Shown here piece after piece: positions 4,059-63,341 of a DNA stretch of 64,000 nt. Source of the stretch: Amphiscolops sp. MND2022 (taxonomy: Eukaryota); contig OZ076409.1 in the NCBI GenBank assembly GCA_964187785.1, forward strand, positions 19,718,001 to 19,782,000. The letters are read 5' to 3'. The notes under the pieces were generated by a model. The model did no database searches. It saw only the letters and a program-made list of their open reading frames with translations, and was not told where the DNA came from. Each line of letters begins with the position of its first letter. Position 1 is the stretch's first letter. A program made the translations under genes and the position numbers.

Positions 4059-7000
4059 CTGAGTTGGTTGACCTTCGATGGTCCTTTGATCTTCATCGGT
4101 CTCTAACACCTCCTCTCGATGGGAGGTTGTTGACGAGGGCTGATTTTGGTTGATGATGGCGAAACACTGAGGAAGTGGTGTCGGGTTTTAATGTGTTTAG
4201 CTTGATTGTGGGTGACAGTTCGAGTGCCCCTTGATTTTCACCACACAACAGAACAGGTGTCTTCGCCGTCATCAACCAGAAGAATGTGAGCAAGCTTTGC
4301 AAAAAACTGCTTCCTGTGCAGCCAAAACCAACGAAACTTACTAGGGTTCACAAGAGCTGAGTGCCACACACCCAGGCTTTTTGGAAACCCAAGAGACAAC
4401 ACTGCCAAAACGACCTAGTTTGAAGCAAATCCTGAAGTTGACATGCGCTCATCCTTGTCGGTGACCCGATCGGGTTCCGAAAAACCGAAAAGTTTGAGAT
4501 TTTCTGAGCGGTTATACAAAAGAGATAGAGAATCGATGCCTTTGAGAAAATAAAGAAAGAGAAGGAGTTTCATTGCACAACAATGGGCTTTACCCTTATT
4601 TGACGCAAATCGCGCTAAGGAATAGACAGCAAAGGAAATGTCAGGGCGCCAACAACGGACAAATACATTAGGTTTTCAACTAAGCTGCGATATTGTTTTT
4701 GTTTGCCAAACTCAAGTGAAGTTTCACTACCTTCGAGATGAGGCAGTCCGATTTAGACTGTTTTGTAGGGGGTATAGCTGGCGTACTGACAGGTTTACAG
4801 TCAGACATATGGCTTTTGCGCAAACTGTCATTTATAATGACCGCTGGCTAAGAGAGACGATCGTTTTCCCACGATCATCGATGCTGAATGCATCGCTCAG
4901 TTTCGCTTTGAAGTCATGCGGCAATTTGTCGTTGTTTGAAAAGTACAAAATGTCGTCGGCCCAAACTACAAAAAATTGGGAACTCATAGCAACGGAAAAG
5001 ACAATGATCCTTAGCAGACTGTTCAAATTCGTTCACCAGAAACCACTGGGTTAAGGTTTCGTTCCATTTCCTCCCTGTTTGCTTTAAACCATAGAAGCAT
5101 TTTTGAAGCTTGTAATCAAGTCTTTTAAAACGTAAAAATTAGCGCGCTCTTATTAAGGAATAGTTGTTTTTCCATTGATAAAAAGGCTCAGAGGTCCAAA
5201 GTTCACTTGAGACCCGTTTTGTCTCAACTTGCTAACGCTGCTCAAAATTTGAACATGATCAGGAAGAAAAAGACAGGCGGAAAATGTCACACGACGTTCG
5301 ATCCCATTTTGGTCCAAGAGCAAAATAGAAACTTCTCCAACACCCTCAACTTGCGAAAAGGTCCGGCTCGCAGTTTTTATTTTGCGTTAAGTTTCTTCGA
5401 TAAAGTCGAAGAACAGAGAACAGTACAAAACATGCGAGGAGCACCAGACTCGATGACCAAAATGTGCTCCTTCACCTCGCATTTTCGGCTAGTGAGTGCA
5501 GTCTCACTACCATCGCAAAAAAATAGTAAGTCCTCAGCGAAGTTTGACTTTCCTGTCTCAGGACTTGACCTACGGTTCAAAAGAGGGTTTTTTATTTTCC
5601 GCCCATATTTCATATGGGAAAGGAAAATATTTAAATCGAACGGGTTTTTTTTAACAAAATTTGCTATTTTCCGCCCATTATTCATATGGGAAAGGAAAAT
5701 TTTTAAATCGAACGGGTTTTTTTTTTACAAAATTTGCCAAGAATTTATTTATATCAAAGCTAAAGGGTTTCACCCATAGAATTCAGCTCACATAAATTTA
5801 GCTTCGTGCGATTTGTATTTGTGGAGATTTCCGGACTTTTTTTAGTTGACCTCAAGGACCCCAGAATGACCCCAAAATAACTCGAAAATGACCCTATAAA
5901 AAATTGCATTTTTTTACGTTTTAATGCAATTTTTTCGAGTTTCCGATAAATGTCGTGGAATAGAATGTTGAAAAGGTTCACAAAGACAAGGACTCGTTGT
6001 CCAGTAGTCGTTTATGAAGAGATAAATGCGGTGTTTTGGAAGAAAAAGACCCAAAAATGACAAAGAAAACCAAAAAGTTCCAGATTTTTTACGTTTTTAA
6101 GCAATTTTTGTCAAATTTTCGATAGAATTCGCGGACTAAAATGTTGAAAACGATCAACATGGTACAAGTTTGTTGTCCAGTAGGCGTTTCCGAAGAGATA
6201 ATGGCTGTTTTTTTTGAAAAAGTCTCAAATTGACACCGAAAATGACAAAAGTCCCTAAATTTTCCAATTTTCAATGTTTCTACGCATTTTTCGTCAACTT
6301 TTGGAGACTTCGTGGATTGGAGTGTTTTAAGGGGTCAACGTTGGCTGTCCAGTAACCATTTTGAAGAGTTTATTGTTTTTTTCTAAATTAAAATGTCCCA
6401 AATTGACACCGAAATTGACAAAAAACAACAAAATTTTCCAATTTTCAAAGTAAAGTTTTATGCATTTTTTGTTAAAGTTTCACTGACTTCGTGGATTGGA
6501 ATGTTTTAAAGGGTCAACAATGAACAAATTGGTACGTCCCGTAGTCTTTAATGAAGAGATAATTGCAATGTTCTGATTGAAAATGTCTCGAATTGACACC
6601 GAAAATGACAAAAATCCTAAAAGTTTCCAAATTTCAAAGATTTTAAGCATTTTTTCCAAATTTTTGACAGACTTCGTCAAATGGAATGTTGAAAAGGGTC
6701 AACAAGGGAAATAAGTGTTGTCCAGTATGCTTAGAAAAGAGATAAATGCAGTTTTCAATAGGAAATTGTCCGGAATCGACATCGAAGAAGACAAAATTTC
6801 GAAAAAATATCAAATTCCTTTTTTTTTCACTTTTTGTCAAAATATCGATAGACTTCGTGGACTACAGTGTTTAAACGCTTAAGGCGTGGGCAAACTTGTT
6901 GTTTCGGTGAGCTTTCGTTACGAGATAAGTTCAATTCGTAAAAGAAAAGGGCCTCAAACTGACCTGAGATGTCAAAATTTCGAAGTTTTTGTCGTTTTTG

Positions 7001-7818
7001 ATGCAATTTCTGTAGATTTTTCGAAAAATTTTGTTCTAAGCTCCGCAATCCACTCAACAACGAAAAAACGAGCTATGCAATTTTTTCTTGAAAAAAATAT
7101 TACAGTGTTTTGTTTCTGTATACTTATTATACATATTATACTTTATATCACTTTTTAGTTTTAGATCCAAATTGACTTATTTTTTTTCTCAAATTAGATC
7201 AAATTAGAAGAGTTTTTTGGACCTGACTATTTAGATCAATTCATTTAGATCTCAGTTTTGCCCCTCTTTAGATCTTTTTCTTTAGACCTGATTCCACGTA
7301 GCTCAACCATGCTCTCCGTGGGCTCCAATCGCAGGGTTGTGAACTTCTCCGATAGGTTCATCAACCTCGGTGTTTCTGTGCTGTTGAAGTTTCGCTGCTG
7401 TACGAAGATAAGCTTCAAGTTCACGGAAGCAAAACGGCGGTAACGGACGGCATAAATAGCAAAAATTGTGGTTATCTGAGGCGCAAAAAGCAAAAATTGA
7501 GAACGGGAAATAAATATCAGACGAGCATAGTGAGTAAGCAGAATAAAGGTTTTAAAAAACAAAACTCATTAAATTGCTGTGTCCAAAACCTGTTAGTGCC
7601 TGAACTCTTGATCATGGCTGGAATGTCTGAATATTGAAGACTGATTATTGTCAAAACTTTATTTTGAGATGTGTATGAGAAAGTGATTCAGTCAAGTGAA
7701 GATAAAAAATAACAGGTACACGTTCACAAACAACAATGATAATCTAAATTAGTTCGGTCTGAAATAAACTGAGTTGGTAGACCTTCAATAGTGCATTGAC
7801 CTTCATCGGTTTCTAACA
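4059..7818 (-). mobile_element. Old, degenerate Ty1/Copia LTR retrotransposon interrupted by a HINE
   Basis: 5' LTR 7591-7818 (TGTTAG..CTAAC A) is followed on the minus strand by GGTTTTGGACACAG, a decayed copia PBS (GGTTATGGGCCCAG). Coding remnants: gag (ETPRLMNLSEKFTTLRLEPTESMVE, ~7300-7390), protease (LVIESGA..HMFC, ~5430-5470), RT (VWADDILYF..DDRGK; MSDCKPVSTP), RNase H (CVALSSCE; ENQGAL). PPT GAGAGGAGG abuts a 3' LTR remnant at 4059-4108. Confidence 0.8.
5590..7030 (+). mobile_element. HINE family C copy (duplicated 5' end, 3' end not seen) with a ~175-185-bp tandem array
   Basis: ATTTTCCGCCCATATTTCATATGGG head at ~5595, repeated at ~5666. TGTCCAGTA anchor recurs at ~5998, 6174, 6346, 6719. 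Homologous to 18668-18905 and 60361-61300. Confidence 0.75.
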
Positions 7819-8470
7819 AGATCTAATAGGAGCAAAGACCTAGCGGGAAAGGAGATCGAGAAGCGATCGTAGTGGGAGCTGGTCTTTGCGACGGTGAGGG
7901 CGAGCGTGCCTACACAGCATATTCCCCACATTATATTTTCGCTTTCAGAAAGTCCATGTGGATTGAATTTTCCTTTTTGTTTTTGATGGTCCAGTAAATA
8001 TTTTATACGTTAGGGCATCTTAGTTCTTCAGATCTTAATTACGAATTTTCATAAGATCTTGTTCCTTAAACCTTAGTTATGATCCCCGTTTTCCACGGGC
8101 ATCATCAGATGGAATTTTGCTTCTCAGAGAGTCATTGCTCCTGATTTCACTTATTGCTGATGGGTCGTTCAGAAGCTTTTCAAGGGTGTAGTTTTTTTAT
8201 TTCCTCTATCAGATATCATGGATCTTCGTCATCAATCAAGTGCCATGTGTATCATCATGTTGGGGGGAGAAGACACACACCGATGGTCTGCAACGAAAGT
8301 AGGGGACCCCATACCAGCCACTATACCAGTAGACCAGTAACAAAAAAAACCAACCAACTGACTACTCAAACCAGCCACTATGCAGTCGACCGGTAGAAAT
8401 TTTTTTAAATCTACTATGGAATGAAGGTAAAAACAACTAGGCTATACGTAAGAAATTTCTATTATTTAGA

Positions 8471-11400
8471 TTAAAAAACATCTCTGTCGCTCACAGTTCC
8501 TAGGACACAGGCCGCATTGCCTATCTGAAGAGCCATTGAAATCCGTTGCTTCAAAAAGCTGCCAGCTCGTTGATCGTCGTTCGAAAAACAGAGCATTTTA
8601 CAGAGACGCGTGATGAAAATTTCACTGCTCTCGCCTGAAGAACACTGTACTTCCAAGGCCACCGGCTGAAAAATGTATCCATTGTCTAATAACTCGCGAT
8701 ACTTCTCAAATTCCGCGCTTCGGCCTCAGTGGCAGTGATTCCCGGGTTGCATAAAGAGCCTTGATTCAGGCGACCGGGTGCAAGAGCATCCACAACCGTG
8801 ACATCCCACACCGGGCTGTTCACCCATTTACCAAGGAATCATGGTAACACCGTTTGGGTGTTTGCCATCAGTTCGGTACAGTCCTCGCGGTTCGAGCATT
8901 GAAGGCAAGTCGAGAGATCCCAACGTCTGCTTTATGAGAGAATTGAGAGTAGCGTGACGTGAGAAGCGACCAGCACTCTTGGTGCAAGAAAGACCGTGTA
9001 AGCCGTCCCGTTCATCTCTTTTACCACAGTGGCACGTAAGCGCAACACAGATGTTGGCACCGAGACGCGAACCAATTGAAATTCGAAGTTGCTGATCATC
9101 AAGTTTCATGCCTAGGTTCTTGCAAGGAACGACGTTCAGCCATTGAGACCCGAAATTACCTTGATGAACGTTGAAAAATTTCGAACGTTTGTCATCCATT
9201 GTAGAAATCAACTCTTGGGCGGTTTGTACGAAGACAGGTTGTGTCCGATTTTTTTTGGGTTCCATCGAGAGGACTTTCCTGTTCATTCGTCAATTTCAAC
9301 CATTCCTCAAGCGCTTTTGTAAATGAAACATCTTCGAATGTTTCCGAGAAAATCGTCATGAAAAAGTCACTCGCAACAAAAGCTGAGGCCAAAAAGGCGG
9401 GAAGTGCTAATAATGATGCGGATGAAACCCTAAGACCACCCATCTCAGCAGGCAGAGCCAGCTGAGTACTCGAAATATCGTCGAAGTTCACGTTACACAC
9501 TTTGGAAACACCGACGCGCACGGTTTTGTCATATTTTTCCAGGAGAGCTGGATGATTAAAACATGTACTGGTTCTCAGGAAGTACAACAACTTTGGCAAA
9601 CTGAAGCAATTTTTCAACACAAAAAAACCATTGTGCGCATCTAGTTTTTCAACAATCCCGTTAACTTTTTCCAGCTCAAAAATTTTCTTTTCCAATAAGT
9701 CTGCTTTTGATTTCAGGCCGAGCGGTGAACCAAGAATGATAAGTTCATCTTTCTTTGGTGTTTTGATCCCGGGGCAAAGTTTTTGGAAAGATGCTAAAAT
9801 TGAAGACCGTCGTTTTTCAGTGATGTCATCAAGGAACAATTTCACATTTTTTGGGTTTATTTTTGAGTCCCAGCGTTCTTCCAGCGTCAACAATTTTTTT
9901 GAGATCTTTCAAAACGGTTCGGTAATCATCACTTGAATTTCCATCGTCTAGGTACCATAAGTTTATTTTCGACTCCAAACTGTCAATCAGATCCTGAATG
10001 GAATCCGAAAACAAAGCTGGAGACTCAGGATCTCCTTGCTGGGTCCCTTCACAAGATTCGATTACTGAATCACCGTAAAAAAGAAAACTTGGCTGACTGT
10101 ACCTCGAGTGTGAATACTTATAAACTTCAAGGTGTATTTCAAAAACTTTCTCTAGCATGAATTGCCGGTTTATCGAATTGAAAGCGTTTCCAAAGTAAAT
10201 TTTCAAAATTACGTTTTCTTTGGGCTGAGGGCTTTCTATCAAACAACGGAAAACATGTGAGGCCAATTCAGCGCCCCTTTTGGTGCCTACACCTACTTGT
10301 CGATTTCCATATCTTGCTTGACGTGATTCGAAGACATGGTATCCGGCACATTTTGCGGATAATTGGCGGAAAGTATTGCCTATAGCGATAGGACGAAAGC
10401 CTCCATCGGGCTTTTTTAGCGCAATTAGTTTCGCACCAAAGAAGTACGGCCGAAGTTCGAAAGGAACTTTTCTTTCGAGAATCACATTCACAAGATTTGG
10501 TAAGGCTCTGAGAAAATTCAGTCCAGTTTGCCCGTTCGACTTGCCAGTCAAATCTTTCAAAGTTTGGGGCGAAATGCCATCCAACCTTGCACTAGAGCCG
10601 TTGGGTAAGGACATGAGAGCCTTGTGGACAAAAAAATCCGAGATTGAAAAACAATCGTTATCGGTGGGGTATGGAACAGAGCAAGTTTCCCTCTGCGGAT
10701 GTTTCAGCTTAAGGGCAGCGTAGTTGTTGACCGTGAAATCTGCAATCTTGTCGTCGCCTACTGCCATTTTGATTCCGGCCTTAACATTACCGTTGTCTAA
10801 TTTAGTGCAAATGTAACGCAGTCGTCGATCTAACTTGCTTTTCTGCTGCGGTTTTCTGTCGCGTTTCGGTTTTTTAGGAGTCTGAAAAAAAATTTCGACT
10901 ACTTATGCAACCGTGCTGTTTTTTTCTCCCGACCTTCTCATGAAAAATTCAAACTTCTCAAAAACTGTCCATACGATTTTCACGAAATTTTGCACAGTCA
11001 TTCTACACCCAAAGGGGCCCCTGCGTGTGCAAAGGCATCAAAATTGTATGGCTGGGATGTGAGAAACATAGCCAAATTTAGCCCAAAAATGGCCAAAAAA
11101 CAGCCATTTTTCGACTTTTTTCGATTTTCTCAAAAACTGTCCAAACGGATTAGAACGAAGTTTTCTACAGTTATTCTATACCATATTAGAGTCCTATTTG
11201 TGCAATGGCATTAAAATTGTATGGCTTGGATGTGAGAAACATAGCCAAAATGAGCCCAAAAATGGCCAAAAAACAGTCATTTTTCGATTTTTTTTATTTT
11301 CTTGAACTGTTCATACGATTCGAACGAAATTTTCTACAGTCATTTTCCACCATATTATGGTTCTTTATGTGCACTTTCATTAAATTCGTATTGCTAGGAT

Positions 11401-12026
11401 GTGAGAAACATAGCCAAAGTTAGCCCAAAAATGGCCAAAAAAACAGTCATTTTTCGATTTTTCCGATTTTCTTAAACTGTTCATACGATTCGAACGAAAG
11501 CGAGTCAGAAGGAAAAAGACTTAAGCCGACTCCTTTACCGCATATGCGGCTCTAGTTCTCAATGACACCATCCCGAATACGCTTGTTGATAATTGCACTA
11601 AGTGATGACCGCTGACCTTTACCTCCTCGAGTTGGTTTTTCCAGAAAACAGCTTAGAGAGGAAAGCAGTAAGCACCACAAGGCAATATTTGACGGGGTTT
11701 CAGTAACCGTTTCACAAATATCATTAATTTTGGGTATCAAGTTTTCAGCTAGGGGGATCCGTGAAGTTTTAGGAACTCTTTTCAAGTAAACAACGCCTGA
11801 ATTAAAAAGGGTGTCTGGTCTAAATTTATCATCCTGACACAGGGATTGTGTTCACTGAAGAGCACCTACTACATTTAAATTCGGCAAGACTCCGGGCTTC
11901 AGTTCTTGATAAATTAGCGCATTTTATGTGAACCCATCCGTTGCAAAGCCTACAATTTATCCAGTCGATCAACCCCGAGGGCTTCAGACACTTCGGAGCG
12001 TTGCAGGTTTCGTTGTTTTTCATCAC
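8471..12026 (-). pseudogene. Disrupted single ORF of the CRE element
   Basis: ORF pieces 11829-12026, 11552-11785, 9829-10870, 9192-9893, 8828-9286 and 8471-8662 join through frameshifts, stops and the 10874-11555 insertion. Confidence 0.85.
10874..11555 (+). mobile_element. HINE family D (Helentron-type non-autonomous element) with ~175-bp tandem repeats, inserted in the CRE ORF
   Basis: 5' TTAGGAGTC..TTTCGACT hairpin; 3' subTIR CCGACTCCT, palindrome CCGCATATGCGG, then CTCTAG|TT. Removal restores the CRE frame (GVIE-KKPKR). GGATGTGAGAAACATAGCC occurs three times. Confidence 0.85.
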
Positions 12027-22740: not shown

Positions 22741-23060
22741 GTGAATCGATGCGTTGAAAATTAATGATATATTTTCTTTTGGAATATAAACAGGCAAGAT
22801 TATTATTTTTCGGACATGGAATGAAATGGTCACAAACAGCAAATTCGACAAAAAGTTCTACAGTCTCTAATTTTTCAGACTCATGTTTCTAACAGATCGT
22901 TTCTGTTTGACAAATCTAAGTCGGCCCCTTAGAACCAATGGAAAGTCATCGTGTTTAGATTATTGGTAACCGTAAAACTATATGCCTAACCTATTTTTGC
23001 GCTGTTTTCAATTTTTGGCAATTTTTACTATTTTGGTGTGTTACAATAATTTTATTGCAG

Positions 23061-25441: not shown

Positions 25442-25815
25442 TTTTTTTAGTCGGCGCATTTTGTACGAAAATGCGCCCGACTGTTACAATGACTAGTGTT
25501 TTTTTCAAGGCCACAGAAAACATTCGAATGGTCCAAGAGTCGGTTTGTTCACGCTGCAAGTTTGTCCGATCTGCAAAGGCCCCCTTCGGTTTTTCCCGTG
25601 TTTCATTTTTCAGAAAGACGTTTTTCAAACCTAAAGACGTTTTTCGGCACTGGGCGACTTCTGATGTTTTCATTAAGATAATAAAAGCGTTTTTCGTGGC
25701 ATCAGACTGCCCGTTCGGATGTTTTTACCAATCTGAATATTATGAAAATTTCCCAAAAGCCATCCTGGGCATTACTATTAGACTTTGCGCTTTAAGTGGG
25801 GCGCCGAGTCTTTTT
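25442..25815 (+). mobile_element. HINE family A variant (degenerate) in a RhoGAP intron
   Basis: TTTTTAGTCGGCGCATTTTGTACGAAAATGCGCCCGACT 5' hairpin; GGCGCCGAGT near 25800. Confidence 0.6.
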
Positions 25816-26198: not shown

Positions 26199-26216
26199 TA
26201 TTCACATATATTTTAG

Positions 26217-27881: not shown

Positions 27882-28103
27882 TTTTTAGTCGACGCTTCAT
27901 GAAGTGAAACGCGACTATTATAGTGACTTTTTTAATCCACACGAACTGACCAAAATAGTTCTACAAAGTCCAATACCCGGCGCGCTAATTCGGTTTAACC
28001 TTTGGATTTTTCGGATATTGTAAAAGAATCCTGGACATTTGAAAGTCCTTTGCTATTTTTGAGCCTTAGATATGGCGCCAACTTATGCCGTTCCCGGCTT
28101 GTT
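27882..28103 (+). mobile_element. HINE family A, short copy
   Basis: TTTTTAGTCGACGCTTCATGAAGTGAAACGCGACT ... GATATGGCGCCAACTTATGCCGTTCCCGGCTTGTT. Confidence 0.8.
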
Positions 28104-29021
28104 AAACTTTATTAGTGATTTCTGGCACTGGTAAACAAGTCAAAAAAATGTTTAATGCCCCCCTCCCCAATGTTCGTCTTTGAGTGCTTTCAATTTTTCC
28201 GAACATTTTCGCAGCACACACAAATTATTGGATGCAAAAAGGCTATCTTTTTGCTCAATTAGTGATTTTATTAGATTGAAACTAATCGGTCTTATTGCTC
28301 TAATTTTAGCTGATGAGGTAGCATTTTTTCCAATTTGACAATTTCATCGTTCCTAAATAGGGCAACTTTAATTGTCAATGACCTTGTGCAGATAGTTCAA
28401 AACAGAAGAAAAAAAATCATAACGAAGATTTGCAGCACCACATTTTTATCTTTTTAGTGTAAACAAGTCTTGCCGATCAAACACAATCTATCCTAAAGTT
28501 AGTTTCTATTATACGATGCCTCTGTCCCCTACTTTTTCAACTTCCATGATTTTTCAACTTCAGAATATATTTATCAAGCAATCCTATACATTACATCTTT
28601 GACAGTTTGATCTAAAATCTGATATCTGACTGGAAAAATCACTTTTGACAAAAAAATTGAAAAAAAATTCTGCAGAAAGTCTCAAATTGGCAAAAAGGAG
28701 CTTTAAGCTTGCAAAACGCGTTTCTCAAGCCAAGAACTTTAAAAATAAGGAAGTACCCTTTGACCGAATCGATTTTTTTGAAAAATCTAAGGAGCCCTCA
28801 ATGCTTGCGAAACGCTGTGTCTGCTAAGAATTGAAGGAGGGCAAATCGATTAATTCAAAAAAATTAGAAAAGTCGCACAGCACCGAAAAAAAACCAAGAG
28901 GGGACCATTTGGCCTTTCCTCTACTTTTGCAAGCATAAATAAAAACTAATTGAAAATTGCCGAAAAATGCAGATTCGAAAAAAGTGCCGAAATCCAGAAG
29001 AGGAAATTTGGGCTTTAGGCA

Positions 29022-29260
29022 TTTTAGGAGTCGGAAAAAAATTTCGACTACTTATGCAATCATGACGTTTTTTTTTCTCCCGACCTTTCATGAAAACTTC
29101 AAATTTCTCAAAAACTGTACATCTACACCCAAAGGGGCCCCCTGCATGCGCAAAGGCATCAAAATTGTATGACTGGAATGTGAGAAAAATAGCCAACATT
29201 AGCCCAAAAATAGCCAAATAATGGCCATTTTCGACTTTGAGTTTCGCAAAAACTGTCCAG
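29022..29260 (+). mobile_element. HINE family D, 5' portion
   Basis: TTTTAGGAGTCGGAAAAAAATTTCGACTACTTATGC and the following sequence are homologous to 10874-11150. Confidence 0.75.
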
Positions 29261-29492
29261 ACGGCAAAAGCGTTGACCAAAGACGCTAGTCATTGTCACA
29301 GTCGGGCATATTTTCATAACGGGCACAAAATAGCGCGATTTATCAACAGTTTTTTCGAAAGTCACAAATTTTGGTTTTCTGGGGCTTTCATTTAAAGGAA
29401 ATCGTTTATCGGGTCTTAAAGTGACATCTTCGTTCATTGTCGGCACTGCAGGAATGATCACAGTTTTTCAATGTTTTTCTTGAGTATATATA

Positions 29493-29830
29493 AACAAGCC
29501 GGGAACAGCTTAAGTCGGCGCCATATCTAAGGCTCTAAAATAGCAAAAAGAACTGAAAGTATCAAAGTATTCTTTTCTACAGTACCCAAAAAACCCAAAG
29601 GTTGGACCGAATTGGTGGGACCCTTTAGTCTCGCCCAGTTTTGTATATTATGCTAAAAAAGAACAACTCTTATAGTCCAGTTCCCGTGCCAAATTTACAC
29701 TTTGGCGCCTTAAAATTTTGTAGAACTTTTAGGGGAACTATTTTCGTCACTTCAGGTGTATCGAAAAAAAACACGACGAAAAGCCATGACTATAGTCGAC
29801 TCTTTTCTACAGAAAAGTGCCGACTAAAAA
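29493..29830 (-). mobile_element. HINE family A copy
   Basis: AACAAGCCGGGAAC..AAGTCGGCGCCATATC at the left end; GTGCCGACTAAAAA at the right end. Confidence 0.8.
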
Positions 29831-30319: not shown

Positions 30320-31149
30320 TCGGGACATAACTTTCCGCGCAATTGCAGCAACTTGTTTACATTTCCACCCTACAGACTAAAAACGTATTGTTTTTGGCTC
30401 CTGCGCGACTTTCCATAGCAGTTTTTTCTTTTCATTAGAGGTCCGCTGCTTCAATTTTGAGGTTTTCTGTTGAAAATTGTAATTTTTGAGCCTTTCGTTG
30501 TCACAAGTACTGTTACATTCGCAGTGTGCAATTTTTTCGACTTCAATTTTTGAAGAAAGTCACAGTTTCGATTTTTGAAACATTTCCAGCTACGACAGAA
30601 TCTTTTCAACCATAAAGTACGCCCTGTAAAACTTTTTGGTTCCTGTCCAATTCATTGAAAATTGTTCTCACCATATAGTTCTCCCAGAGTGGGAAAAGAC
30701 AATCCGAAAAAGAACTTCTGTGTTTTTCAGTCTGCTGTATTCGAAGCTATATGCTTTTTTAAGACCAGCGAACTGTCATTTCTATAAGCGCCAGCTTATG
30801 ATAGTAACTTAGTTTCCTTAGTACCTTCTAACAGTCACTTGCAGTAGGAGTCACCTAAAACTTTTGAGAAAGTGTGACATGTATGAAAAGCAGGTGTACG
30901 TGGGTTCGCGTCTCGCACTAAACCGAAATTTTCATGCTAGCAAAAGTAGAGGGGAGATTAAAGGGTCCCCATTGAATTTATTTTGGATTTATGCAATTTT
31001 TTGTTAAATGTTTGAATCCGAAATCCTCTTCCTCAATTTTTAGCAGAATCAAAGCGTTTTGCATAGAGGGCGACTATTCGTTTTTTTCGGTACTATTCGA
31101 CTTACCGACGAATTAAGAAAAAATACTTCGACAAAATGTTCGACCGTCA

Positions 31150-31512
31150 TTTTTGGTTGGCGCTTCATACAGTGAAACGCGACTGTTATAGTGACTCTTT
31201 TTTTATTCCGCACGAACTGACAAAAATAGTTCAACAAAGTTCTACGAAAATTTATGGTATCAATTTAAGCCATTTGGTCTAGAAAACCGAACCAAAAAGG
31301 TTTTTCCCTTTTTTCCGCGTCACATACACTACCGGGCGAGACTAAATGGTCCCCGTTTAGATTTTTTTGGAATTCTAAAGCGTTTTCTCGAAATTTTTTT
31401 TCAATGATTTCAAAGGGTCCACTTTCAATTTGTTTGATGTTTTGCAACAGAAATGTTGAAAAATCTCAAGGAGTCCCCTTTTTAGCCACCTTGTGCTGTT
31501 CCGGGCTTGTTT
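31150..31512 (+). mobile_element. HINE family A copy (degenerate)
   Basis: TTTTTGGTTGGCGCTTCATACAGTGAAACGCGACT ... CCGGGCTTGTT. Confidence 0.7.
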
Positions 31513-32771
31513 TTCGTTTCTTGAGGGTTTCTGTAGAGGAAACTCCTTCCGAGACTTGACGGAGACAACTTCGATTATTTTTTGATCCTGTGAAACTGAT
31601 GAATTTTCTCAATGATTGTAGAAAAGACCTACGGCTTTTTTCGTCATAATGCGACTTTTATTCGATAAAATTTTTATTTGCACGAAGTGTACCCCTTCAG
31701 TTTTTTAAAATGTTTTCAGCATTTGGCGAGCTCAAGGCTTCCTTTTTGGTACAAAAAAATGTGATTTTTAACGAAAAAAAAATATTTGAAAAATTCAATT
31801 TTTGAAACAAATTTTGATTTTTTTGAGTTCCCAGTTTGCCAATCTTATGCGCATCCTTTTGCATATTTAAATTTTTTTTTACCTTGAGCAGAAGGCCGAC
31901 TTGGGCCATTCCCACTTGTTTCCACTTGAACTATAAGAATACTCTAATGGATATTCATTGCAACGAAGAAAGCGCTAGAAGAAAAAAGAACTCACGGCCT
32001 CCTGTCTGCCAAACGGACGCACTACCAGCTGGGCCACCGTGACTAAATTATTCAAATACGAAATGAAAGATAAAGTGGAGATTTGGCAGAATTTGTACTA
32101 AAATGATGAACAGAGGAGAAATTTTCTTTCATATTGCCCCTTGGGATCCAAAAGAAAAATATGCGGGAGCCGATTTTCAGATCATAAGAGACAATTTAGT
32201 TGAGACGATTCTGTTGCTTTTCGTTTTCGAACTATTTAGTGCTGTAATTGCCGCGTTTTTGCCCGAAGACCTCCTAAAACTTTGATTGAAAACAACGCAC
32301 TACCACTGCGCCTCTTGTTAAAAGTTAGTTAGAGTTTTTAATGGTCCCTACTGACATATGAGAAAATTACTCGTTGAGCTGCGTTTTTCCCATTCATTTC
32401 ACGAGGTTCCAATTTGAACCCAAATTATGAATGTTCCAAGATAAAATACAACATCAGGTAAAATTATGCTCGTGGAATTTTGATCTTTGTAAAAGTTACA
32501 AAACAAACAACGCTTCAAAATCACCTTAAAATGATCCCAAACATCCCAAAGTTTTCAAAATGTACGTATTTTTGACCTCTTTTTAGGGCGAATTGATGTG
32601 CAGTTTTCGAATATTATTTTGGATATGAACAAATGCAGAAATCAAAAAAAATAATCCCTTATTTTATACACTTTTTGTTTCGGAAATCCAGATCTATGTG
32701 AATAAATACGAATCAAAATTAACAAGCAGTAACAAATTTTTGAAATTTAGAAATTCTTTTACTTAGCTTAT

Positions 32772-33214
32772 TTTTAGTTGGCGCGTTTCGGAGAAAAAAC
32801 TATAGTGGCTTTTTTATAGACCGGTTAACTCACTGAGTTAAGTTCCTTCTCAGTTTTCCATTACTCACTTTCATAAGTTTTCTATAAGTTTCTATATTCT
32901 CTATATCCTCTTTCTATACTACTATATACGAAGATTTGACGTTATATTAGAAGTAAAGTGTGTTTTACTAGAGGAGCTTCGAATCTTATTTTTCGAGTTC
33001 AATTGTTTGTTTCTTTCCAAAATTGGAAGAAAAGCTCACTATATCTGAATTTATGACCATATATCCGACATAATTGATATTTCTGGTGAGACTAAAAGCA
33101 AAAAAGGCCCCTTTAGGCTCAAAAGGCCCCCTTTCGATTTTTTTGATACTGTGAAATCGAGAATTGATAGAAAAAGTATCTTTGAAGTACTTTTGCTCTT
33201 TTTCCCCGGCTTGT
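32772..33214 (+). mobile_element. HINE family A variant (degenerate)
   Basis: TTTTTAGTTGGCGCG...CTATAGTGG head; CCCCGGCTTGTT tail. Confidence 0.6.
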
Positions 33215-38450: not shown

Positions 38451-40747
38451 ACCAGAAATTTCGTCACAAGAAATTTCGTCGTCGGAAATTTCATCATCGG
38501 AATTTTCGTCGTCGGAAATTTCGTCGTCGGTGATTACATTCTATAAAACGTCGCATTATCTTTAATCTATTTGGAATCGTCTTATTACTGAGTCTCAATA
38601 ATTATCGATAATTGTGCAATAATTACTATCATTGACTACTTTTTATTATGGTTTTGAGAGAAACAATTTCGGACCTTATAACTCCCAATATACAACTTGT
38701 TTCTAATCCCCCCAGCACGAAGTTGTTTCGACACTTGAAGCAAAAATTTTTACCAAAGGATTTTTTGATAGTTTTATGACAAAAAAGCAAAAATTCCCTC
38801 TGGAGCAAGCTTGAATTGTATTGTAAAGCCCCGGTAAGTAGTTCCACCGGGTTCTAGTGTTCCAAGCAGAAAACGTTGCATGCAGAAATTTGAATTATAT
38901 GTGCATCAACCAGAATAATTGTCATGTTCTTTTATCTTCCAGTGAAATTTATATTTCCCCAGTGAAAATTGACATAATCCCTCTAAGTATTTTTATCCAT
39001 ATAAAATTCGGACAATGTTTTTTTAACACCCCCCCCCCCGGGATACGAAACTTTCCTAACCCGCCCGCCACACACACACACACCTAATTAAATGACTTTT
39101 ACACTATTTTTTTTAAAAAATGGTGGTGGTTACGGGGGGAGGTTTGAACATAAAGGACAGGGTTACCGAAAATATTATTGGAATAATATTTCCTTCGAAA
39201 ATAAATTATTTCAATATTTTTTCTCTAAAAATAAATAATTTATGAGAATCGGTTTCAAAAATAAATTATTCCAATAGATGAAATAACAAAATATGTTTTC
39301 GTGTTGGGGGGGATCCCAACAAGGTGTACCTTGGGGAAATCGATGACATGGTCCAAATGTCGTTTCGAGTTGGGGAGGGGGGGGGAGAGAGAGATTTCCA
39401 ACAAGGTGTACTTGGGTGGAGGGGATAGATGACATGGTCCATTTTTAAGTCGGCGCTTCATGAAGTGAAACGCGACTATTATAGTGACTCTTTTTTTTTT
39501 CTATCCACACGAACTGACCAAAATAGTTCTACAAAAGTTCTACAAAATATTATTGCACCAAAATGCACTATTTGATCTAGCGAACTGAACCAAAATGGTT
39601 TTACCTGTTTTTCCGCGTAACATACCAAACCGGGCGAGACCAAAGAGTCCCCCCTTTCAATTTTTTTCGGCACTGCGAGACATTTTTTTCGGAATTTTTT
39701 TTTCGAAATTTTTTTCCCCAAAGGGTCCCCCCTGCATTTTTTTGATGTTTTGCGACAGAATGGATGTTGAAAAACCTCAAAGGGTCCCCCCTTTCAGTTT
39801 TTTTCGGCATTGTGAGATTTTTTTCCCGAAAATGAAAAAAAATTTTTTCTTCAATTTTTTCATGTTTTGCGACATAATGGATGTTGAAAAACCTCAAAGG
39901 GCCCCCCTTTCAGTTTTTCGGCATTGTGAGACGTTAGCGCGCCAGGGGCTCGCGGTAGCGAGCCCCGGCGCGCCACTCGGTCCATTTTTTTAGTATGTAA
40001 TTTTTTCAAAAAAAAAATTTTCGAAAAATTTTCGATTTTCGAGTACTGTAAAAGAATACTTGACACTTGGAAGTCTTTTTGCTATTTTTGAGCCTTGGAT
40101 ATGGCGCCGACTTGGGCCGGTCCCGGCTTGTTCAAAGGAACAATTCAAAAATTGTTTCCAACTGGCCTGACTAGAAATCTTCCAAAACAGGAAGTTAACT
40201 TCCATTGGAATAGTTTTTCGTTTTTCAATTTTTTCAACTTTTTTTACTGTGGTTATGTTCGAACTAACTGTTTTTGTGGTGAGGGGTTTGAAAGTTGACA
40301 GTAAATCACGCAATTAATCAGCACAACTTTTCTGAAATTAGAGTCTAATTTTGAATTCCAACCAATCAGAGATGATTCTGGTTAGTGCACACTACTATTT
40401 AATATCTGCATGCACCGCTTTCTGTTTAGTGAACGGACACCGTTCCACCGGTAGGATTGAAATTATACCATTGCTTAAAAAACCGTCTCAATGAGTTGAT
40501 TGAATGCAATTAACTTTTTGACTAAATTTTGGTGTCAAAATGAAACTTTGAGATCTCATTTTTATAATTAAGTAACTGTTTAATTCAAATGATATCTTTT
40601 GGTGAACGCTGTTTTTCCAATAAATACGACGAAATTTCTGCCGACGAATTTTCTGACGACGAAATTTCTGGATTTGCTAATACGACGAAATTTCTTACGA
40701 CGAAATTTCTGACGACGAAATTTCTGGCGACGAAATTTCCCCTCCCC
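38451..40747. repeat. Inverted arrays of a ~15-bp GAAATTTCGTCGTC unit bracketing ~2.3 kb (foldback-like element)
   Basis: (GAAATTTCGTCGTCG)n at 38455-38530 and the reverse complement (CGACGAAATTTCTG)n at 40627-40740, ending CCCCTCCCC. Confidence 0.6.
39442..40132 (+). mobile_element. HINE family A, complete young copy
   Basis: 5' AGTCGGCGCTTCATGAAGTGAAACGCGACT; 3' GCGCCGACT, GGGCCGGTCCC, GGCTTGTT; near-identical to 40902-41556. Confidence 0.9.
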
Positions 40748-40901: not shown

Positions 40902-41556
40902 TTTTTAGTCGGCGCTTCATGAAGTGAAACGCGACTATTATAGTGACTCTTTTTTTTTCTATCCACACGAACTGACCAAAATAGTTCTACAAAAGTTCTA
41001 CAAAATATTATTGCATCAAAATGCACTATTTGGTCTAGCGAACTGAACCAAAAAGGTTTTTCCTGTTTTTCCGCGTAACATACCATACCGGGCGAGACCA
41101 AAGACCCTTTCATTTTTTTCGGCACTGCGAGACATTTTTTTTCGGAATTTTTTTCTTCGGAATTTTTTTTCCTCAAAGGGTCCCCCCTGCATTTTTTTGA
41201 TGTTTTGCGACAGAATGGATGTTGAAAAATCCCAAAGGGTCCCCCCTTTCAGTTTTTTTTCGGCATTGTGAGATTTTTTCCCGAAAATGAAAATTTTTGT
41301 TTTCTTCAATTTTTTCATGTTTTGCGACAGAATGGATGTTGAAAAACCTCAAAGGGCCCCCCTTTCAGTTTTTCGGCATTGTGAGACGTTAGCGCGCCAC
41401 TCGGTCCATTTTTTTAGTATGTAATTTTTTCAAAAAAAAAATTTTCGAAAAATTTTCGATTTTCGAGTACTGTAAAAGAATACTTGACACTTGGAAGTCT
41501 TTTTGCTATTTTTGAGCCTTGGATATGGCGCCGACTTGGGCCGGTCCCGGCTTGTT
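40902..41556 (+). mobile_element. HINE family A, complete young copy
   Basis: Same termini and body as 39442-40132. Confidence 0.9.
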
Positions 41557-43087: not shown

Positions 43088-43662
43088 AACAAGACGGGAA
43101 CGTCTAAAGTCGGCGCTATATCTAAGCCTCAAAAGTTTTTAAAATTGTAAAAGGGGGATCCTGTAGACTTTTTCAAATCCAGTTTGTAGCAAAATATCAA
43201 AAAGGTTGAGGGGGACCTTTTGGAGACATTAAAAAATTTATAAAAAATTTTGAAAAAAATTTTCGAAAAAAATGAAAAATGAGATTTTTGGAACAGTCTC
43301 ATAGTGCCGAAAAACTAGAAAAGGGAGACCCTTTGGGCTTTTTGAAACTTCAGTTTGCTGCAAAATATCAAAAAAACTTGAAGGGGGACCCTTTGGCGAC
43401 AAAAATTCGAAAAAATGGCACATTGGTGAAAAAATTCAAAGGGGGGGGGACCCTGTAGTCCCATCCGGTTTTGTATCTTACATTAAAAATTGAGTACACG
43501 AAAAGGGGGACCCTTTGCACTAACTTAGATGCGAATCCGCCTGCCGGTCCAGTACTTTAGTAGTTCTGTAAAAAGTGTCCACTACGCATTCTGTGGTCTG
43601 ACGAAAAAAAAACTTGCCACTGTAATAGTCGGACTCATTTGATAAAATGCGCCGACTAAAAA
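43088..43662 (-). mobile_element. HINE family A variant
   Basis: AACAAGACGGGAACGTCTAAAGTCGGCGC at the left end; GCGCCGACTAAAAA at the right end. Confidence 0.85.
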
Positions 43663-50260: not shown

Positions 50261-50996
50261 AAAGAAACACCAAATAATCAAAAATAAACTGACTGGTGTC
50301 TAAAAATTTTTCGTTAATAGTCGCACAGTGCTGAAAATTCTAAATATGATATCTTTATGTTTTATTCACATTTTTCTTTGGTTTAAAATGTTACAGATTA
50401 TTTTCAGATAGCAAGCTTTTTCAAAAATGACAACAAAATAAAATGATTACTATAATAATTAAACCAAAAAAGGAAAGATTGAAGCGAGCGACTCTTCAAT
50501 GAATTTGAAATTTTCGAAATTTTTGTCACACACTGTCGACATTTCACCCTTTTGTCTTGCTTTCACTTTTGCATGCTTACAAGCTCTTAAAAATGTTTGG
50601 TGTAATGGGGGACTCGAACCCAGTTACACCCTGAGAAACTCATTCATCTTGTTGCGAATCTTGCTTTTACCTCTCGGCGAAGCGGGAAGTACTTTATTGC
50701 CTAAGCTTTAGGCAGAAAAATGTAGAAGAAACTGAGACCAGGTTGATGAACCAGGATGCCTCATTAAACTGAAATCATAGTTCGATCATACTAGCGTATC
50801 GTGAGGAGGATAACTCCAGACTGGACTATATTTTGTTCAGTCGATGGTAAGCCCGGCTCCTACAATGGTGAGTTGGCTCAACGTAGTCAATTGAGACAGA
50901 CGATTATATACCAAAAGGATATGATGATGATATGGCAAACAATTTGCGTTTTTTCAATAAATTTACATTTGACATCAAAACTAGTGAAAAAAAATC

Positions 50997-51490
50997 GTAG
51001 AAAACGCAGACTATAGCAGTGGCTTTTTTTTCAAGACCAACGAAGTGACAGATTATATAAGTTGTCTTGTCTAACACTAACTGCCACACGACTTCTACTG
51101 GCACTTGGCATAGAGGTTAATTAGGCTTTTTTGAGGTCTGCCAAGCAGAAGGACGTGGTTCGAGTCCCGCCCTCGACCAAATTTTTTTGTGCAGGTTATT
51201 TCGGCTTTGTGAGACTTTTTTCGCAAATTTTTTTAGGGTCTCCAAAGGGCCCCCCTTCATTTTTTTCTATTTTGCAAAAGAATGGTGTTCAAAAACTCCC
51301 AAAGGGCTCCCGTTTACATTTTTCGGCACTGTGCGTCTTACCGGGGACCAAAAAAATAAAAAAAAATCGGATTTTTTTAAAAAATTTTCCTCATGCGGGT
51401 ACTGTAGAAGAGAATATTTCACTCTTTGAAGTCCTTTCGCTATTTTTGAGCCTTAGATATGGCGCCGACGTGGACCGTTCCCGGCTTGTT
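50997..51490 (+). mobile_element. HINE family A subtype with a tRNA-like cassette (5' end eroded)
   Basis: GGTTCGAGTCCC B-box at 51157; 3' end GGCGCCGACGTGGACCGTTCCCGGCTTGTT; homologous to 59474-60001. Confidence 0.8.
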
Positions 51491-56922: not shown

Positions 56923-58107
56923 GTATTATTCCCTTCAGCTCATGAAGTCATTTTTTTCAACTTTGGAATTTATCAGTTTTTGACAGCTCCTTAAAAACAT
57001 AAAAAGTTGTGTTTTAAAAATATAGATAGATTTTTTTCTCATGAAAGCAATTATTTTTTGAATATTTCCACCTTATCTTTCACCTCTTTGATCATTTTGT
57101 CATTACAAGGAATCATTTTTAAAAAATTCCAGACGCAATTCAAGCAGATTAAAGAATGCCTTCAAAAGAGATTTTTCAAGTCTCTGACAGAAACTTTATG
57201 GTAAATTGCAGTACACCCCATATTATATTTTGTTTGAATATCAACACAACCTGCGAGAAAAGAAAACAGCAAAATTTCCATAAACTTTACGAAACAAAAA
57301 AAACACATAGCAAAACTCTTACAGTGGCATGTTTTTTCCTTCAGTCACTGAAGCGTCCACTTTTATCGATTTAAAATGGAGTTTATAAATTTCTAAATGG
57401 AACAAGATGTCCTGCTTTTGTCCCAGTAGTTAAGACGTAATTCAGACCTGGTAACTGGGCCTGAGAAGTCCCTCAATAAACCAACGTTTTATGCTGGCAA
57501 CGGTAGCGGAAAGACCAATGGGTCACCATTGCGAATTTTTTGTCTTTTAACCGAAGTCCACCTTCAGTTTTTAACAGAAACGATTTTTTTGCGAACATAG
57601 AGTGCCTTCTTGTCGGCACCATGCATCTATTTGAAGATATTTTTTGACAAAAAAGTTTGGAACAAAATTTTTGAAAAATAATTTTTCTCTAAAAAATTTT
57701 GGTCTTTTGAGGTTTTCTGTTACGAAAAACCTATTTCCGAGTCTCTGGGGTGACATCTTTGGTTATTTTCAGGTCCCGTGTGATTGATGGGAGCTTTCTC
57801 AATACCCGTGGAAAAGACCTACGTTTTTTTTCTGCTGTTTGTAATTCTTTTGAAAAACATTCATTCGGCCACCCTTTCAATTTTTAAAAAGATTTTGGCT
57901 TGCAAAATGGTTTGGTAAACTTTTTGAAAAACTTGATTTTTGATGTTTCGAGTCAATATAAAAGCTGTTTTCGAGTCTTTTGGGTATCCCTTCGGGTGTT
58001 TTTGTGACTGTATAATCGATAAATGTTTTCACAAGTGTCTTTTCGCACATTCGCGTTTAGTGGGGCGCTCCCAGCTTGTTATTCTTATGCAACGAATCTG
58101 CAAAAAT

Positions 58108-58511
58108 CAAAGCCGGAAACTGCATAAGTCGGCACAAAACCCAAGGCTCTAAAATAGCACAAGGACTTTGAAGTGTCAAGCATTCTCTTCTACAGTACTT
58201 AAAAACCCAAAAGTTGGACTGAAGTAACGCGCTAAAAGAGGGGACCCTTTGGGATTTAAAACTGGAAAAATTGAAGGGGTAACCTTTGGCGGCATTAAAA
58301 AAGTTTCGGAAAAAATTCTCACAATGCCGAAAAAAACTAGTAGGGGGACCTTTTAGTCTCGGTCTTGTATGTTACGCTAAAAAAAGAACAATTTTTATAG
58401 TTCAGGTCTCTGGTCCAAACGGTCCAACATGGCGCCTTAAAATTTCGTGGAATTTTGTAAAACTATTTTGGTCAGTTCTTGATTTTCGAAATTCATGAAG
58501 CGCCGATTAAA
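58108..58511 (-). mobile_element. HINE family A copy (degenerate) in a sulfotransferase intron
   Basis: AAGCCGGAAAC..AAGTCGGCAC at the left end; TTCATGAAGCGCCGATTAAA at the right end. Confidence 0.7.
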
Positions 58512-59473
58512 TATGGACTCAGATTAAGTTTCGCTTCCGGATGACTTCTGTTGGCCTGATAACTACGATACATTTGTACTATATCTTCAGTTATTAACAA
58601 CTGTCACTTACTAAAAACATCGAGTACTTAGCAAGTAACATTGGTTTAAACAAGATGCCATTTTGTTTTTGACCTAAGTGTCTGTTGATTTTAGACCCAG
58701 TGGAAGCCAGCAAGTATAACAACTTGTGAACATGTAGAACAACTTGGCAACAGTTCGGTTTCATCCCCAAGTAGTAGTTCTTCTGTTGCATCAGTCCGAA
58801 TTATTTTGGAGATCTGTATTTTTAGTCAGCGCATTTTAGCAGAAAGCAAAGCACGACTATTACAGGGGCAAGATTTTTTGTCAGGTGACAATCTGACACT
58901 GAATGATCGGTTTTTGAACAATCTCAGCCAAACAATCCTGCAGCCGCCGTAGCGCAGCACGCTATATCGAATTTTTGACGTTATATCCGAAGTAAATTGC
59001 GTTTTTCTTCGGTGGAAGCGGAGTTTCGATATCTTGCGCTATGAGACGATTTCAAAATTCTCGATTTTCGTCTGCTATTAGGATTTCCACCAATAATTTG
59101 TTTCAATACTATCCGAATTTTTGAATGAATTGAGTGATCTCCGAAGTTTGTATTTTCAAGACTGGCGAACTGGCACATTTTTATAGGCTTTTCTATAAGT
59201 TAACTTAGTACCTTACTTACTGCCACTACTTACTCCCTGCGGGGTGAATTCAATTTGCAGGCGTGGGATTTTACGTGGGCTGGAGTCTCGTACTAAAGAA
59301 AAAATTTTATAGTTTGCAAAAGAAGAGTGGAGACCAATTGGTCCCCTTTTTAGGATTTTGTCAGCAGTTTTTTTAATCGAGTCCTAAGGTTGACTTCATT
59401 GAATATTTTTTGGTCCTGTGGAACTAAGGAGAGTTTCATCAATAATAAATGTGGAAAACCCCTTCCGTTTTTA

Positions 59474-60001
59474 TTAGTCGGCGCTTTTCGAAGAAAAACG
59501 CAGACTATAGTAGTGACTTCATTTTTTTAAGACCAACGAACTGACAGATTTTATAAATTTTATAAGTTGGCACTAAACCGGCACTAACACTAAACTGTGT
59601 CACGCTACTTCACTGCCACTTGGCCACTACGGCTTTTTCGAGGTCTGACAAGCAGAATGACATGGGTTCGAGTCCCGCCATGACCAAAATTTTTTTGTGC
59701 AAATTTTTTTCGGCTTTGTGAGACTTTTTTCGCAAATATCTCCAAAGGGTCCACCCTTCATTTTTTTGTCTATTTTGCAAAAGAATGGATGTTAAAAACT
59801 TCCAAAGGGCCCCATTTTACATGTTTCGGCACTATGCGACTTACGGGAGACAAAAAAAATTTAAAAAAAATCAAAAAAATGGATTTTTTTTCAATTTTTC
59901 CTCAAACGGGTACTGTAGAAGAGAATACTTGACACTTTGAAGTCCTTTTGTTATTTTTGAGCCTTAGATATGGCGCCGACTTGGGCCGTTCCCGGCTTGT
60001 T
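59474..60001 (+). mobile_element. HINE family A subtype with a tRNA-like cassette
   Basis: TTAGTCGGCGC head; GGTTCGAGTCCC at 59665; GCGCCGACTTGGGCCGTTCCCGGCTTGTT tail. Confidence 0.85.
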
Positions 60002-60360
60002 TTGACATTGTGCGGCTTTTTTTAAAAAATAATTTAGTTTGGTTAAAGTGTACTTCCGCCGCTTTCACAAATGTTTCCAGCTTGAAGAAAGCGTTTTGCA
60101 AGCTTAAAGCTCCATTCTCAGCACGATGGGGCTTTTTTACGGGAAAAAATTCAGGAAAAAAAATTTCAGAAAAGTTTTTTTTGCAGTTTCCATTTGGGGA
60201 AAAAGTGTTTTTCGAGTCTTACGCGCATCCCTTCGTGTAGTTTTCAGCACTATGAAATTGATAAAAATTTAAAAATAGCGTCCTTTGCAATCTCAAGAAA
60301 CTTGGTTTGTTGGAAATTTGAGAGAGAGCCGACTTCCCGGCTTGTTTTAGAATAATTATA

Positions 60361-62387: not shown

Positions 62388-62483
62388 TTAATGAATACAT
62401 CGCTGATTATGCAATTGTTTATATCTCCTCATTTGCTGTATATTGACATCTTTTTCAATTTACTCTTCAGTTGTGTTCCATCA

Positions 62484-63341
62484 TTACACTTGCGATAAGC
62501 AAGCGTTATGGGAAAGTGCGGGTGCTTTTTTTTCCGCGCGACAACTGTCTGATTTCACGCGGCAACTCGCACGTTTCACGCGTTCGTGGTCTAGTGGTAA
62601 GATGCTTGCTTTTCAACCCAGAGGTTTCGTGTTCGAACCCGTGGGTATGCGCTAATTTTTTTACAAGTATTCCGAAGCAGAAGGTTCTGACTTTTTTCGG
62701 CACTATGATACTTTTTGGCTTTGTGAGACTTTTTTTCGGCTTTGTGAGACTTTTTTTTCGAATTTTTTTAAATGTCCCCAAAGAGTCCTCCTTTCAATTT
62801 TTTTGATATTTTGCAAGAGAACGAATGTTAAAAAATCCCAAAGGGTCCCTTTTTTCAGAATTTTCGGTACTATGAGACTTAGCGGAAACTTCAAAAAAAT
62901 TCGGAAAATTTTTTCTCAATTTTTAGTTTTAAAAGACCGTTTTTTTAAAGACCGATCTTTTTTCTGTGCGACTTTTTTAAAATTTGTTTTCACCGAAGCC
63001 CCTACTCAATTTTTACAAGAAACGAAACGTTTTGCGAGAGGACTCCTCAAGGCTTTGCGACTTACCGGAGACCATCAAAAATGTTTTCAAAAAGTTTTGA
63101 ATTTTTTTTCTTCTATTTTCTGTTTAAGGTTTTCCGTTGAGAAAGAATGGGTTTTTTGCTGTTTTCAGTTGGGGAAGAATGGTTTTCGAGGCTTACGCGT
63201 ATCCCTTCGGGTATTTTTTGGCGCTGTAAAATTGATGAAATTTTAATCTCCTTTTACCCTTGGTTTTCCGTATGATATTGCTTATTTGGTTTTCTTCAAA
63301 AGTTCGCAAGTGTTTGCGAAGCACGGCTTCGCCTCTGTGTT
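62484..63341 (+). mobile_element. HINE family B, complete copy with a tRNA-Glu-like cassette
   Basis: Same termini as 34299-35502; A and B boxes at ~62587-62639. Confidence 0.9.

Follow-up and report, generated by a model that had tools for sequence, protein, structure and literature searches.

The window analysed here, a 64-kb stretch of AT-rich animal DNA from the acoel Amphiscolops sp. MND2022 (GenBank assembly GCA_964187785.1, contig OZ076409.1, positions 19,718,001 to 19,782,000), contains about 26 copies and fragments of mobile elements that share the layout of HINE or HLE2 elements. They were located by self-BLAST, reading and profile scans and form 24 intervals that together cover 15,340 bp, or 24% of the window. 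A preliminary description of the same DNA, made from its letters alone, had counted about 20 repeats at roughly one per 3 kb, which was of the right order but slightly low. We consider the elements to be non-autonomous HLE2, that is, HINE- or DINE-1-like partners of Helentrons or of Helitron2, with a probability of about 0.88; telling a Helentron from a Helitron2 requires the protein. The assignment draws on asymmetric ends, insertion into T-runs, lack of coding capacity, central repeats, nesting, and many copies of one family (B) found elsewhere. The layout, the T-T target, the variable number of T's and the central repeats all match what is reported for such elements in PMC4067079, PMC7492417 and PMC11417382.

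Four families, A to D, are told apart by their ends. Both ends are recognisable in 15 copies (ten of family A, two each of families B and C, and one of family D), and the remaining 11 copies are one-ended or old fragments. The common layout consists of a T-run and a 5′ hairpin containing a subterminal inverted repeat (subTIR) at one end, and of the inverted subTIR, a short palindrome and a terminal motif at the other. This motif is CTTG in A and C, CTGTG in B and CTAG in D, and the next base is T. The subTIR motifs of all four families were each present as a 5′/3′ inverted pair at the sites claimed in the preliminary description and, as proposed there, each pair came with its own 3′ palindrome; hairpins, in which the 5′ subTIR pairs with an inverted copy close by, were found in all families. 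A recognisable pair is kept in 13 of the 15 two-ended copies, the other two being A31 (starting at 31155) and A32 (starting at 32776), where most of the 3′ subTIR is gone. In intact copies the perfect subTIR measures 9–10 bp in A, 10 bp in B and 12 bp in C, and that of the lone two-ended D copy 7 bp, or 9 bp with one mismatch; the figures for C and D come from few copies (two two-ended copies and one, respectively). Central repeats across the elements range from 117 to 185 bp. The canonical Helitron (HLE1), with 5′ TC, 3′ CTRR, insertion between A and T and no inverted repeats, was considered and rejected, as the ends here begin with a T-run plus A and carry subTIRs, and CTAG is present only in D.

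The layout was compared with chance expectation using a family-blind scan for a T-run plus 9-mer, followed by the inverted 9-mer, a hairpin and CTTGT, CTAGT or CTGTGT. The scan paired 13 distinct 3′ ends, compared to 0–6 (mean 2.1) in 30 dinucleotide shuffles; ten of the 13 pairs were curated copies and three were chance-like. Of the 15 5′ hairpins examined, 13 outperform 97.5% or more of base shuffles in folding (p ≤ 0.025), and all four families are represented among them. The 3′ palindromes, with stems of 4–7 bp, are likewise found in all four families. In family A the sequence of the inner 5′ stem varies between subfamilies with pairing retained, and the 3′ stem shows one compensatory change, from C-G to A-T, in A33 and A43. 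Pairing in this stem reaches 87% of cells, a level attained by 14 of 500 shuffles, and slid controls gave 33–49%. Since the stems of family A vary yet still pair, this suggests that the enzyme may read the shape of the hairpin besides the short subTIR.

A T-run lies to the left of 14 of the 15 two-ended copies, and the fifteenth has TTTTTA. The terminal G is followed by a T in 14 of the 15, a count that is partly built in because the script demanded T or A at this position. Direct repeats other than T's and of at least 3 nt were found at 4 of the 15 copies, compared to 62 of 210 mismatched flank pairs, which is the chance level. As a positive control, the Copia element of the same window is flanked by GCATA on both sides, and this 5-bp duplication demonstrates that target site duplications (TSDs) are detectable here. 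The earlier statement that the elements lack TSDs is therefore upheld.

Empty sites provided a further view of the insertion. D10 (10876..11555, plus strand; coordinates are those of the window), the two-ended D copy with three ~173-bp central repeats, lies within a T-run and splits the open reading frame (ORF) of a non-long-terminal-repeat (non-LTR) retrotransposon with a PHD finger and a reverse transcriptase (RT) on the minus strand, for which 150 homologues were compared. Residues 72–103 of homologue P0062 end at 11557 and its residues 104–248 start at 10875, and the site is also crossed by homologues P0128 and P0023. The room at the site is 6 bases in P0023, 7 in P0062 and 8 in P0128, compared to the 8 T's (6+2) of the window, so that the insertion added 0–2 T's and nothing more. 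A search with joined flanks gave junction-crossing paralogues for three of the 15 copies, A31, A59 and weakly A43, after exclusion of a self-match of A58. A59 (59476..59999, plus; two-ended, with a B-box-like motif) is inside the old long A-ended copy H58 (58824..60344, plus), which aligns with its paralogues apart from 4 extra T's. A31 (31155..31509, plus) is inside another old long A-ended copy, H30 (30720..31918, plus), which is collinear with three paralogues. For A43 a weak paralogue runs across the junction; the flank paralogue of A39 stops near the junction and is hence uninformative. Insertion is between T and T, without other duplication and with few T's gained. The empty-site alignment that had been suggested as a check thus showed, for D10, A59 and A31 (A43 being weak), no change other than a few added T's, and the proposed DINE-1/HINE layout of non-autonomous Helentrons is backed by structure, by T-T insertion and by empty sites.

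The inverted repeats close to both ends, like the net addition of 0–4 T's at empty sites, would also fit cut-and-paste MITEs (miniature inverted-repeat transposable elements) that duplicate a T or TT target, and elements of this kind were formerly classed as MITEs. We hold this to be very unlikely. The 3′ inverted repeat stops ~18–26 nt short of the 3′ end, with a conserved palindrome in between, so it is not terminal; true terminal inverted repeats had been named in the preliminary description as evidence that would contradict its assignment. Moreover, the gain of T's differs between sites, flank repeats are at chance level, and PMC4067079 moved this layout to Helentrons with autonomous partners.

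Copies outside the window were sought for family B only. A chance reading frame of B34 (34302..35501, plus) matches 116 of 160 candidate ORF clusters, all of them ENA records and spread over many contigs. These clusters have no Pfam domain, and the best match was B in 115 of them and D in one. The 3′ end of B is read through by 17 ORFs, 15 of which run on into differing sequence, so that B is interspersed with a fixed 3′ boundary. One frame across this end reads Val (GTN) in 10 of 10 ORFs before they diverge; hence T follows the terminal G, in a count that is independent of the script that found the ends.

Pfam searches with all 244 stop-to-stop frames of at least 65 amino acids in the window revealed no Helitron Rep, PIF1 or recombinase family, and no above-cut-off match inside any HINE copy. 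The sole AP endonuclease (APE) of the window belongs to a long interspersed nuclear element (LINE). Used as bait, it gave 20 matches among 728 candidates, which were longer relatives, and none of the 20 had a Helitron, Rep or PIF1 helicase domain; by the strict criterion, a Helentron has an AP endonuclease fused to Rep/helicase, and its Rep motif 2 reads GSP, not GLP. An alternative in which a Crypton- or DIRS-like tyrosine recombinase mobilises non-autonomous elements allows for asymmetric ends, and both the missing TSD and the unseen mobilising partner are consistent with it. We nevertheless regard it as very unlikely: no recombinase domain is encoded in the 244 frames, and subTIR, 5′ inverted repeat, 3′ palindrome and T-T insertion together make up the published HLE2 signature, here on three unrelated bodies. 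Cryptons have short direct repeats at their ends, and such terminal repeats were not seen.

As non-autonomous HLE2, the elements would depend on a Rep/PIF1-helicase, probably with an AP endonuclease, supplied in trans from an autonomous element at another genomic site, as is expected for the group. A matching Rep/helicase for each type of end, as put forward in the preliminary description, would be one possible arrangement. This enzyme would nick among the terminal T's at one end, as hypothesised in PMC4067079, peel off one strand and stop at the 3′ subTIR and palindrome. The copy would then be pasted between two T's of a new T-run, probably through a circle; for Fusarium, polymerase chain reaction (PCR) evidence of a circular joined-end intermediate is given in PMC5148889. 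Because the donor would stay in place, copies would accumulate and land in one another.

Several observations weigh against the HLE2 assignment. The subTIRs of A, B and D (9–10 bp) are below the 11–15 bp of PMC4067079 and the 11–18-nt window of HELIANO, the published length being a naming threshold plus a typical range and the oyster paper (PMC7492417) allowing 11–12 bp with a mismatch. The 3′ palindromes are energetically weak, with p ≤ 0.05 in 4 of 12 only, and the covariation in the A 3′ stem is a single event in a structure derived from the same sequences, and so a hint only. A microsatellite flanking the satellite, like that of DINE-1 or Cg_HINE, was not noticed. The empty-site paralogues within the window are just 60–68% identical, which excludes long duplications and leaves single bases uncountable, and duplication of a T or TT cannot be distinguished from the element's own terminal T's, an ambiguity also raised in PMC4067079. 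Finally, no autonomous partner lies within the window, and the end pattern of family A had no match in metagenome and viral contigs, nor that of family B in metagenome and prokaryote contigs.

All-vs-all BLAST sorted the copies into three groups: one holds A, B and the old long copies, and C and D make up one each. Bodies of A and B are 70–72% identical over 220–300 nt (E 1e-28 to 1e-43), and matches to A and to old copies cover positions 175–1109 of the 1203 in B34. Family B thereby shares ~900 of its 1,200 nt with family A, and its first 174 and last ~94 nt have nothing in common with A. C and D had no match to A/B at E ≤ 1e-4, except for two weak ones (45 bits) between the uncertain tail of D29 and old copies, a score to be set against maxima of 40 bits in shuffled and 51 in reversed controls. 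Compared with each other, the individual repeat units of A and of B scored 34–76 (shuffle maxima 16–27), and those of C and D were inside the shuffle range. The preliminary description had proposed several independent lineages. This holds for C and D, which are unrelated to A/B and to each other, but not for A and B, which share a homologous body. Cores of B share 75–82% identity with those of A (69% in one case). Their branch (82/88) is short and lies among the A subfamilies, in an unrooted and largely open tree of 14 core units, which excluded the old long copies through a length filter and does not settle whether B arose inside A.

Since B and A share a body while their ends are unrelated, four types of end are carried on only three bodies. 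On the simplest reading, B would be an A-type body between unrelated B ends, a composite presumably born by nesting; a possible alternative is that the A and B ends diverged slowly from a common ancestor. B34 consists of a B 5′ module, an A-type body with 2.7 173-bp repeats and a B 3′ module, and B62 (62486..63339, plus; also two-ended) has two repeat units fewer. A wider proposal, which we offer tentatively and find doubtful on balance, is that HLE2 bodies may switch carrier by a swap of both ends. Family B would then be an A-type body that, through nesting, ended up flanked by the 5′ and the 3′ module of another, unrelated family; it would have gained or kept a tRNA-derived RNA polymerase III (Pol III) module, and the whole would later have been propagated by a different Rep/helicase. 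Raw material for such swaps is present in ORFs from other copies, where a B 3′ end immediately precedes one of A (P0286), B bodies contain D ends (P0258, P0260 and P0267) and B lies in B (P0229).

The tRNA-like module of B34 (34396..34457, plus) has a Pol III A box at 34403 and a B box at 34447, and its counterpart in B62 is at 62587–62640. A further pair of A- and B-box-like motifs, at 51106 and 51158, is found in A51 (50995..51488, plus; family A, 5′-truncated). A scan with an A-box/B-box consensus detected just these three pairs in the window, each of which lies within an element and follows its orientation, compared to 0–1 in 100 shuffles; B34 and B62 represent one event. In Rfam the B module matched only tRNA, with a score of 17.6 bits (E 0.18) that falls short of the cut-off of 29, and the A51 module had no tRNA match. 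Such modules fold no better than shuffles, ARAGORN detected no tRNA genes in the window, and Rfam over the whole window gave nothing at cut-off. A lone B-box-like motif at 50585–50690 (minus) precedes sequence similar to the A59/A51 module, without an Rfam tRNA match (at 50620), and is possibly a decayed copy.

The box pairs of B34, B62 and A51 and the tRNA as best Rfam match of the B module raise the question of whether the elements are retrotransposed tRNA-derived short interspersed nuclear elements (SINEs) or SINE composites. We consider this extremely unlikely. The module is internal, starting ~95–130 nt inside the elements, and is absent from most A copies and from all C and D copies, with the full box pair in 3 of ~26 copies; there is neither TSD nor tail; both ends are conserved and the middle is variable; and, as described above, the Rfam score is sub-cut-off, A51 lacks a tRNA match and folding is as in shuffles. 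With moderate confidence, we instead take the module of these HLE2-type elements for the putative decayed remnant of a tRNA or SINE head, travelling as cargo. The oyster Pearl element reportedly has Pol III boxes. Nothing on point was found on tRNA or Pol III modules in Helitrons or HINEs in the literature searched, with subscription papers outside the search.

The families differ in age. A39 (39448..40130, plus; 117-bp repeats) and A40 (40907..41554, plus), both two-ended and near-identical with differing flanks, are ~92% identical over the main alignments, as are B34 and B62. The ends of C18 and C60 are 96–97% identical, C5 and C60 74%, D10 and D29 78%, and the old long copies 63–70%. Young A copies lie within old A-ended ones (A31 in H30, A59 in H58). 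Unequal ages and nesting indicate successive waves and not a joint arrival; the families arrived in waves. The preliminary description had regarded them as co-amplified, which the range of identities, from ~92–97% down to 63–70%, and the young-in-old nesting contradict.

The other copies of family A are as follows. A27 (27887..28101, plus) is two-ended and short, and A29 (29495..29825, minus) is two-ended. A32 (32776..33213, plus) has its 3′ subTIR deleted, and the ends of A58 (58108..58508, minus) are decayed. A33 (33482..33970, minus) and A43 (43090..43657, minus) belong to a subfamily with a GACG/CGTC 3′ palindrome. A39 contains a 35-nt GC-rich palindromic insert (39951–39975) that is missing from A40. 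Among the old copies, the 3′ body of H58 is 82% identical to B; H57 (57300..58080, plus) is long with a decayed A-like 3′ end; H0 (approximately 320..860, minus) is A-like; and H28 (28640..29020, minus) and H63 (63560..64000, minus) are fragments of the A/B/old-copy body, the latter extending past the window edge. H0 and H63 lie beyond the coordinates covered by the preliminary description.

In family C, C18 (18670..18904, plus) is two-ended without central repeats, and C60 (60363..61297, minus), also two-ended, has ~3.8 173-bp repeats. C5 (5594..7024, plus) has a doubled 72-bp 5′ end (5594 and 5666) and an array of ~176–185-bp repeats; a search for its 3′ end found none. C36 (36560..36632, minus) is a degenerate, weak C-like 5′ end with a score close to the shuffle maximum. 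Besides D10, family D is represented by D29 (29026..29264, plus), a 5′ part only. The elements cluster at one another's ends: the 3′ ends of H58 (60344, plus) and C60 (60363, minus) face each other 18 nt apart, and the 3′ end of A29 lies shortly beyond the truncated D29 (29490–29495).

Two copies lie in an intron of a RhoGAP (ARHGAP18-like) gene at 22285–26821 (plus), which has a GT donor near 25330. C25 (25348..25444, plus), a C-like 5′ end with a variant hairpin, starts ~18 nt into the intron and is interrupted by A25 (25449..25810, plus), a copy whose 5′ end is of family A and has an inner hairpin that pairs perfectly, with a degenerate 3′ subTIR and no 3′ palindrome. Four matches to the RhoGAP exon were found among 372 candidates; its identity is 72% to a protein of Convolutriloba macropyga, which makes an acoel host probable, and 36–42% to the other three.

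The Copia-type LTR retrotransposon used as control (44210–49902, plus; TSD GCATA) has 552-bp LTRs that are 97% identical and run TG...TA; it encodes gag, protease and integrase in one frame, and its RT is split over three frames. Remnants of a Copia RT and protease lie at 4917–5386 (minus), beside C5. The PHD and RT retrotransposon interrupted by D10 (~8800–12300, minus) has several broken frames. The LINE with APE and RT (12424–14697, plus) is frameshifted and has relatives of 90–94% identity in ENA records, one cluster comprising 118 sequences. A remnant of a hAT dimerisation domain (21086–21301, minus) and a sulfotransferase exon (61770–62387, plus), between C60 and B62, were also present. 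Three long near-perfect palindromes each occur once in the window, at 2811–2887 (38-nt arms, 1-nt loop), 17466–17524 (28-nt arms, 3-nt loop) and 43874–44047 (78-nt arms, 18-nt loop). A 15-bp unit forms two arrays, at 38455–38530 and 40626–40739, in opposite orientation and 2.1 kb apart.

Genomes with more than one HINE family are no novelty, nor are insertion between T's, nesting or central repeats of ~170 bp (160–180 bp), and the main observation is ordinary in kind because seven HINE families have been described in a mite and 11 in an oyster. The mite families, HINE-Mo 1–7, comprise 21 subfamilies in one genome and have subTIRs of 12–15 bp (Thomas, Vadnagara and Pritham 2014, PMC4067079). 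Together with DINE-1 they resemble the present elements in their subTIRs, 5′ inverted repeat or palindrome, 3′ palindrome, T-rich target without TSD, variable terminal T's, central repeats and several families per genome. In contrast to HINE-Mo, the subTIRs here are 9–12 bp long, two end families share one body, and the elements are known without an autonomous partner. Cg_HINE of the Pacific oyster includes short arrays of 140–180-bp repeats and T-T insertion without TSD (Vojvoda Zeljko et al. 2020, PMC7492417). As in the present window, Cg_HINE inserts into other elements and introns, and its HINEs could not be matched to autonomous elements. It differs in a left-flank microsatellite, of which none was noticed here. 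Three cases are described in the oyster: families related in every part, families related in their ends but not in their repeats, and families unrelated throughout. A and B form a case beyond these, with a related body and unrelated ends, and a family pair that appears by sequence to be of this kind was not met in the parts of the HINE literature consulted.

HLE2 as treated by HELIANO (Li et al. 2024, PMC11417382) is alike in that each end has a short inverted repeat, the right one being followed by a 3′ stem-loop, and in T-T insertion; HELIANO seeks repeats of 11–18 nt beside a transposase, and those of A, B and D are just shorter. FoHeli of Fusarium oxysporum (Chellapan et al. 2016, PMC5148889) shares asymmetric inverted repeats with hairpins and doubled 5′ ends, as in C5; self-insertion was proposed there as a route to chimeric ends, and joined-end circles were detected by PCR. 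FoHeli elements differ in being fungal and mostly autonomous, with ATTTT or CTCCTGT ends and a constant number of T's.

No report of acoel Helitrons or Helentrons was found in the literature, including passages of PMC9911081, PMC6451197 and PMC10565955, with subscription papers, Repbase and Dfam outside the search; one paper retrieved for Hofstenia has the word Helitron in its reference list only, and acoel terms had no match in the HELIANO supplement (PMC11417382). As far as the literature was searched, this would be the first description of Helentron-type elements in acoels. The acoel repeat tables seen (S. roscoffensis supplementary table 2 and P. naikaiensis table 2) name no rolling-circle class and may fold such elements into 'DNA transposons' or 'others'; the latter table gives 20.4% as unclassified. 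Given that HINEs make up 24% of this window and that these tables have no rolling-circle class, part of the unclassified repeats of acoels may be HINEs, and the value of the finding is mostly for the annotation of acoel repeats. If family B is indeed an A body with new ends, it would offer a natural test of what the HLE2 Rep/helicase recognises, and of how satellite-like central repeats move between carriers.

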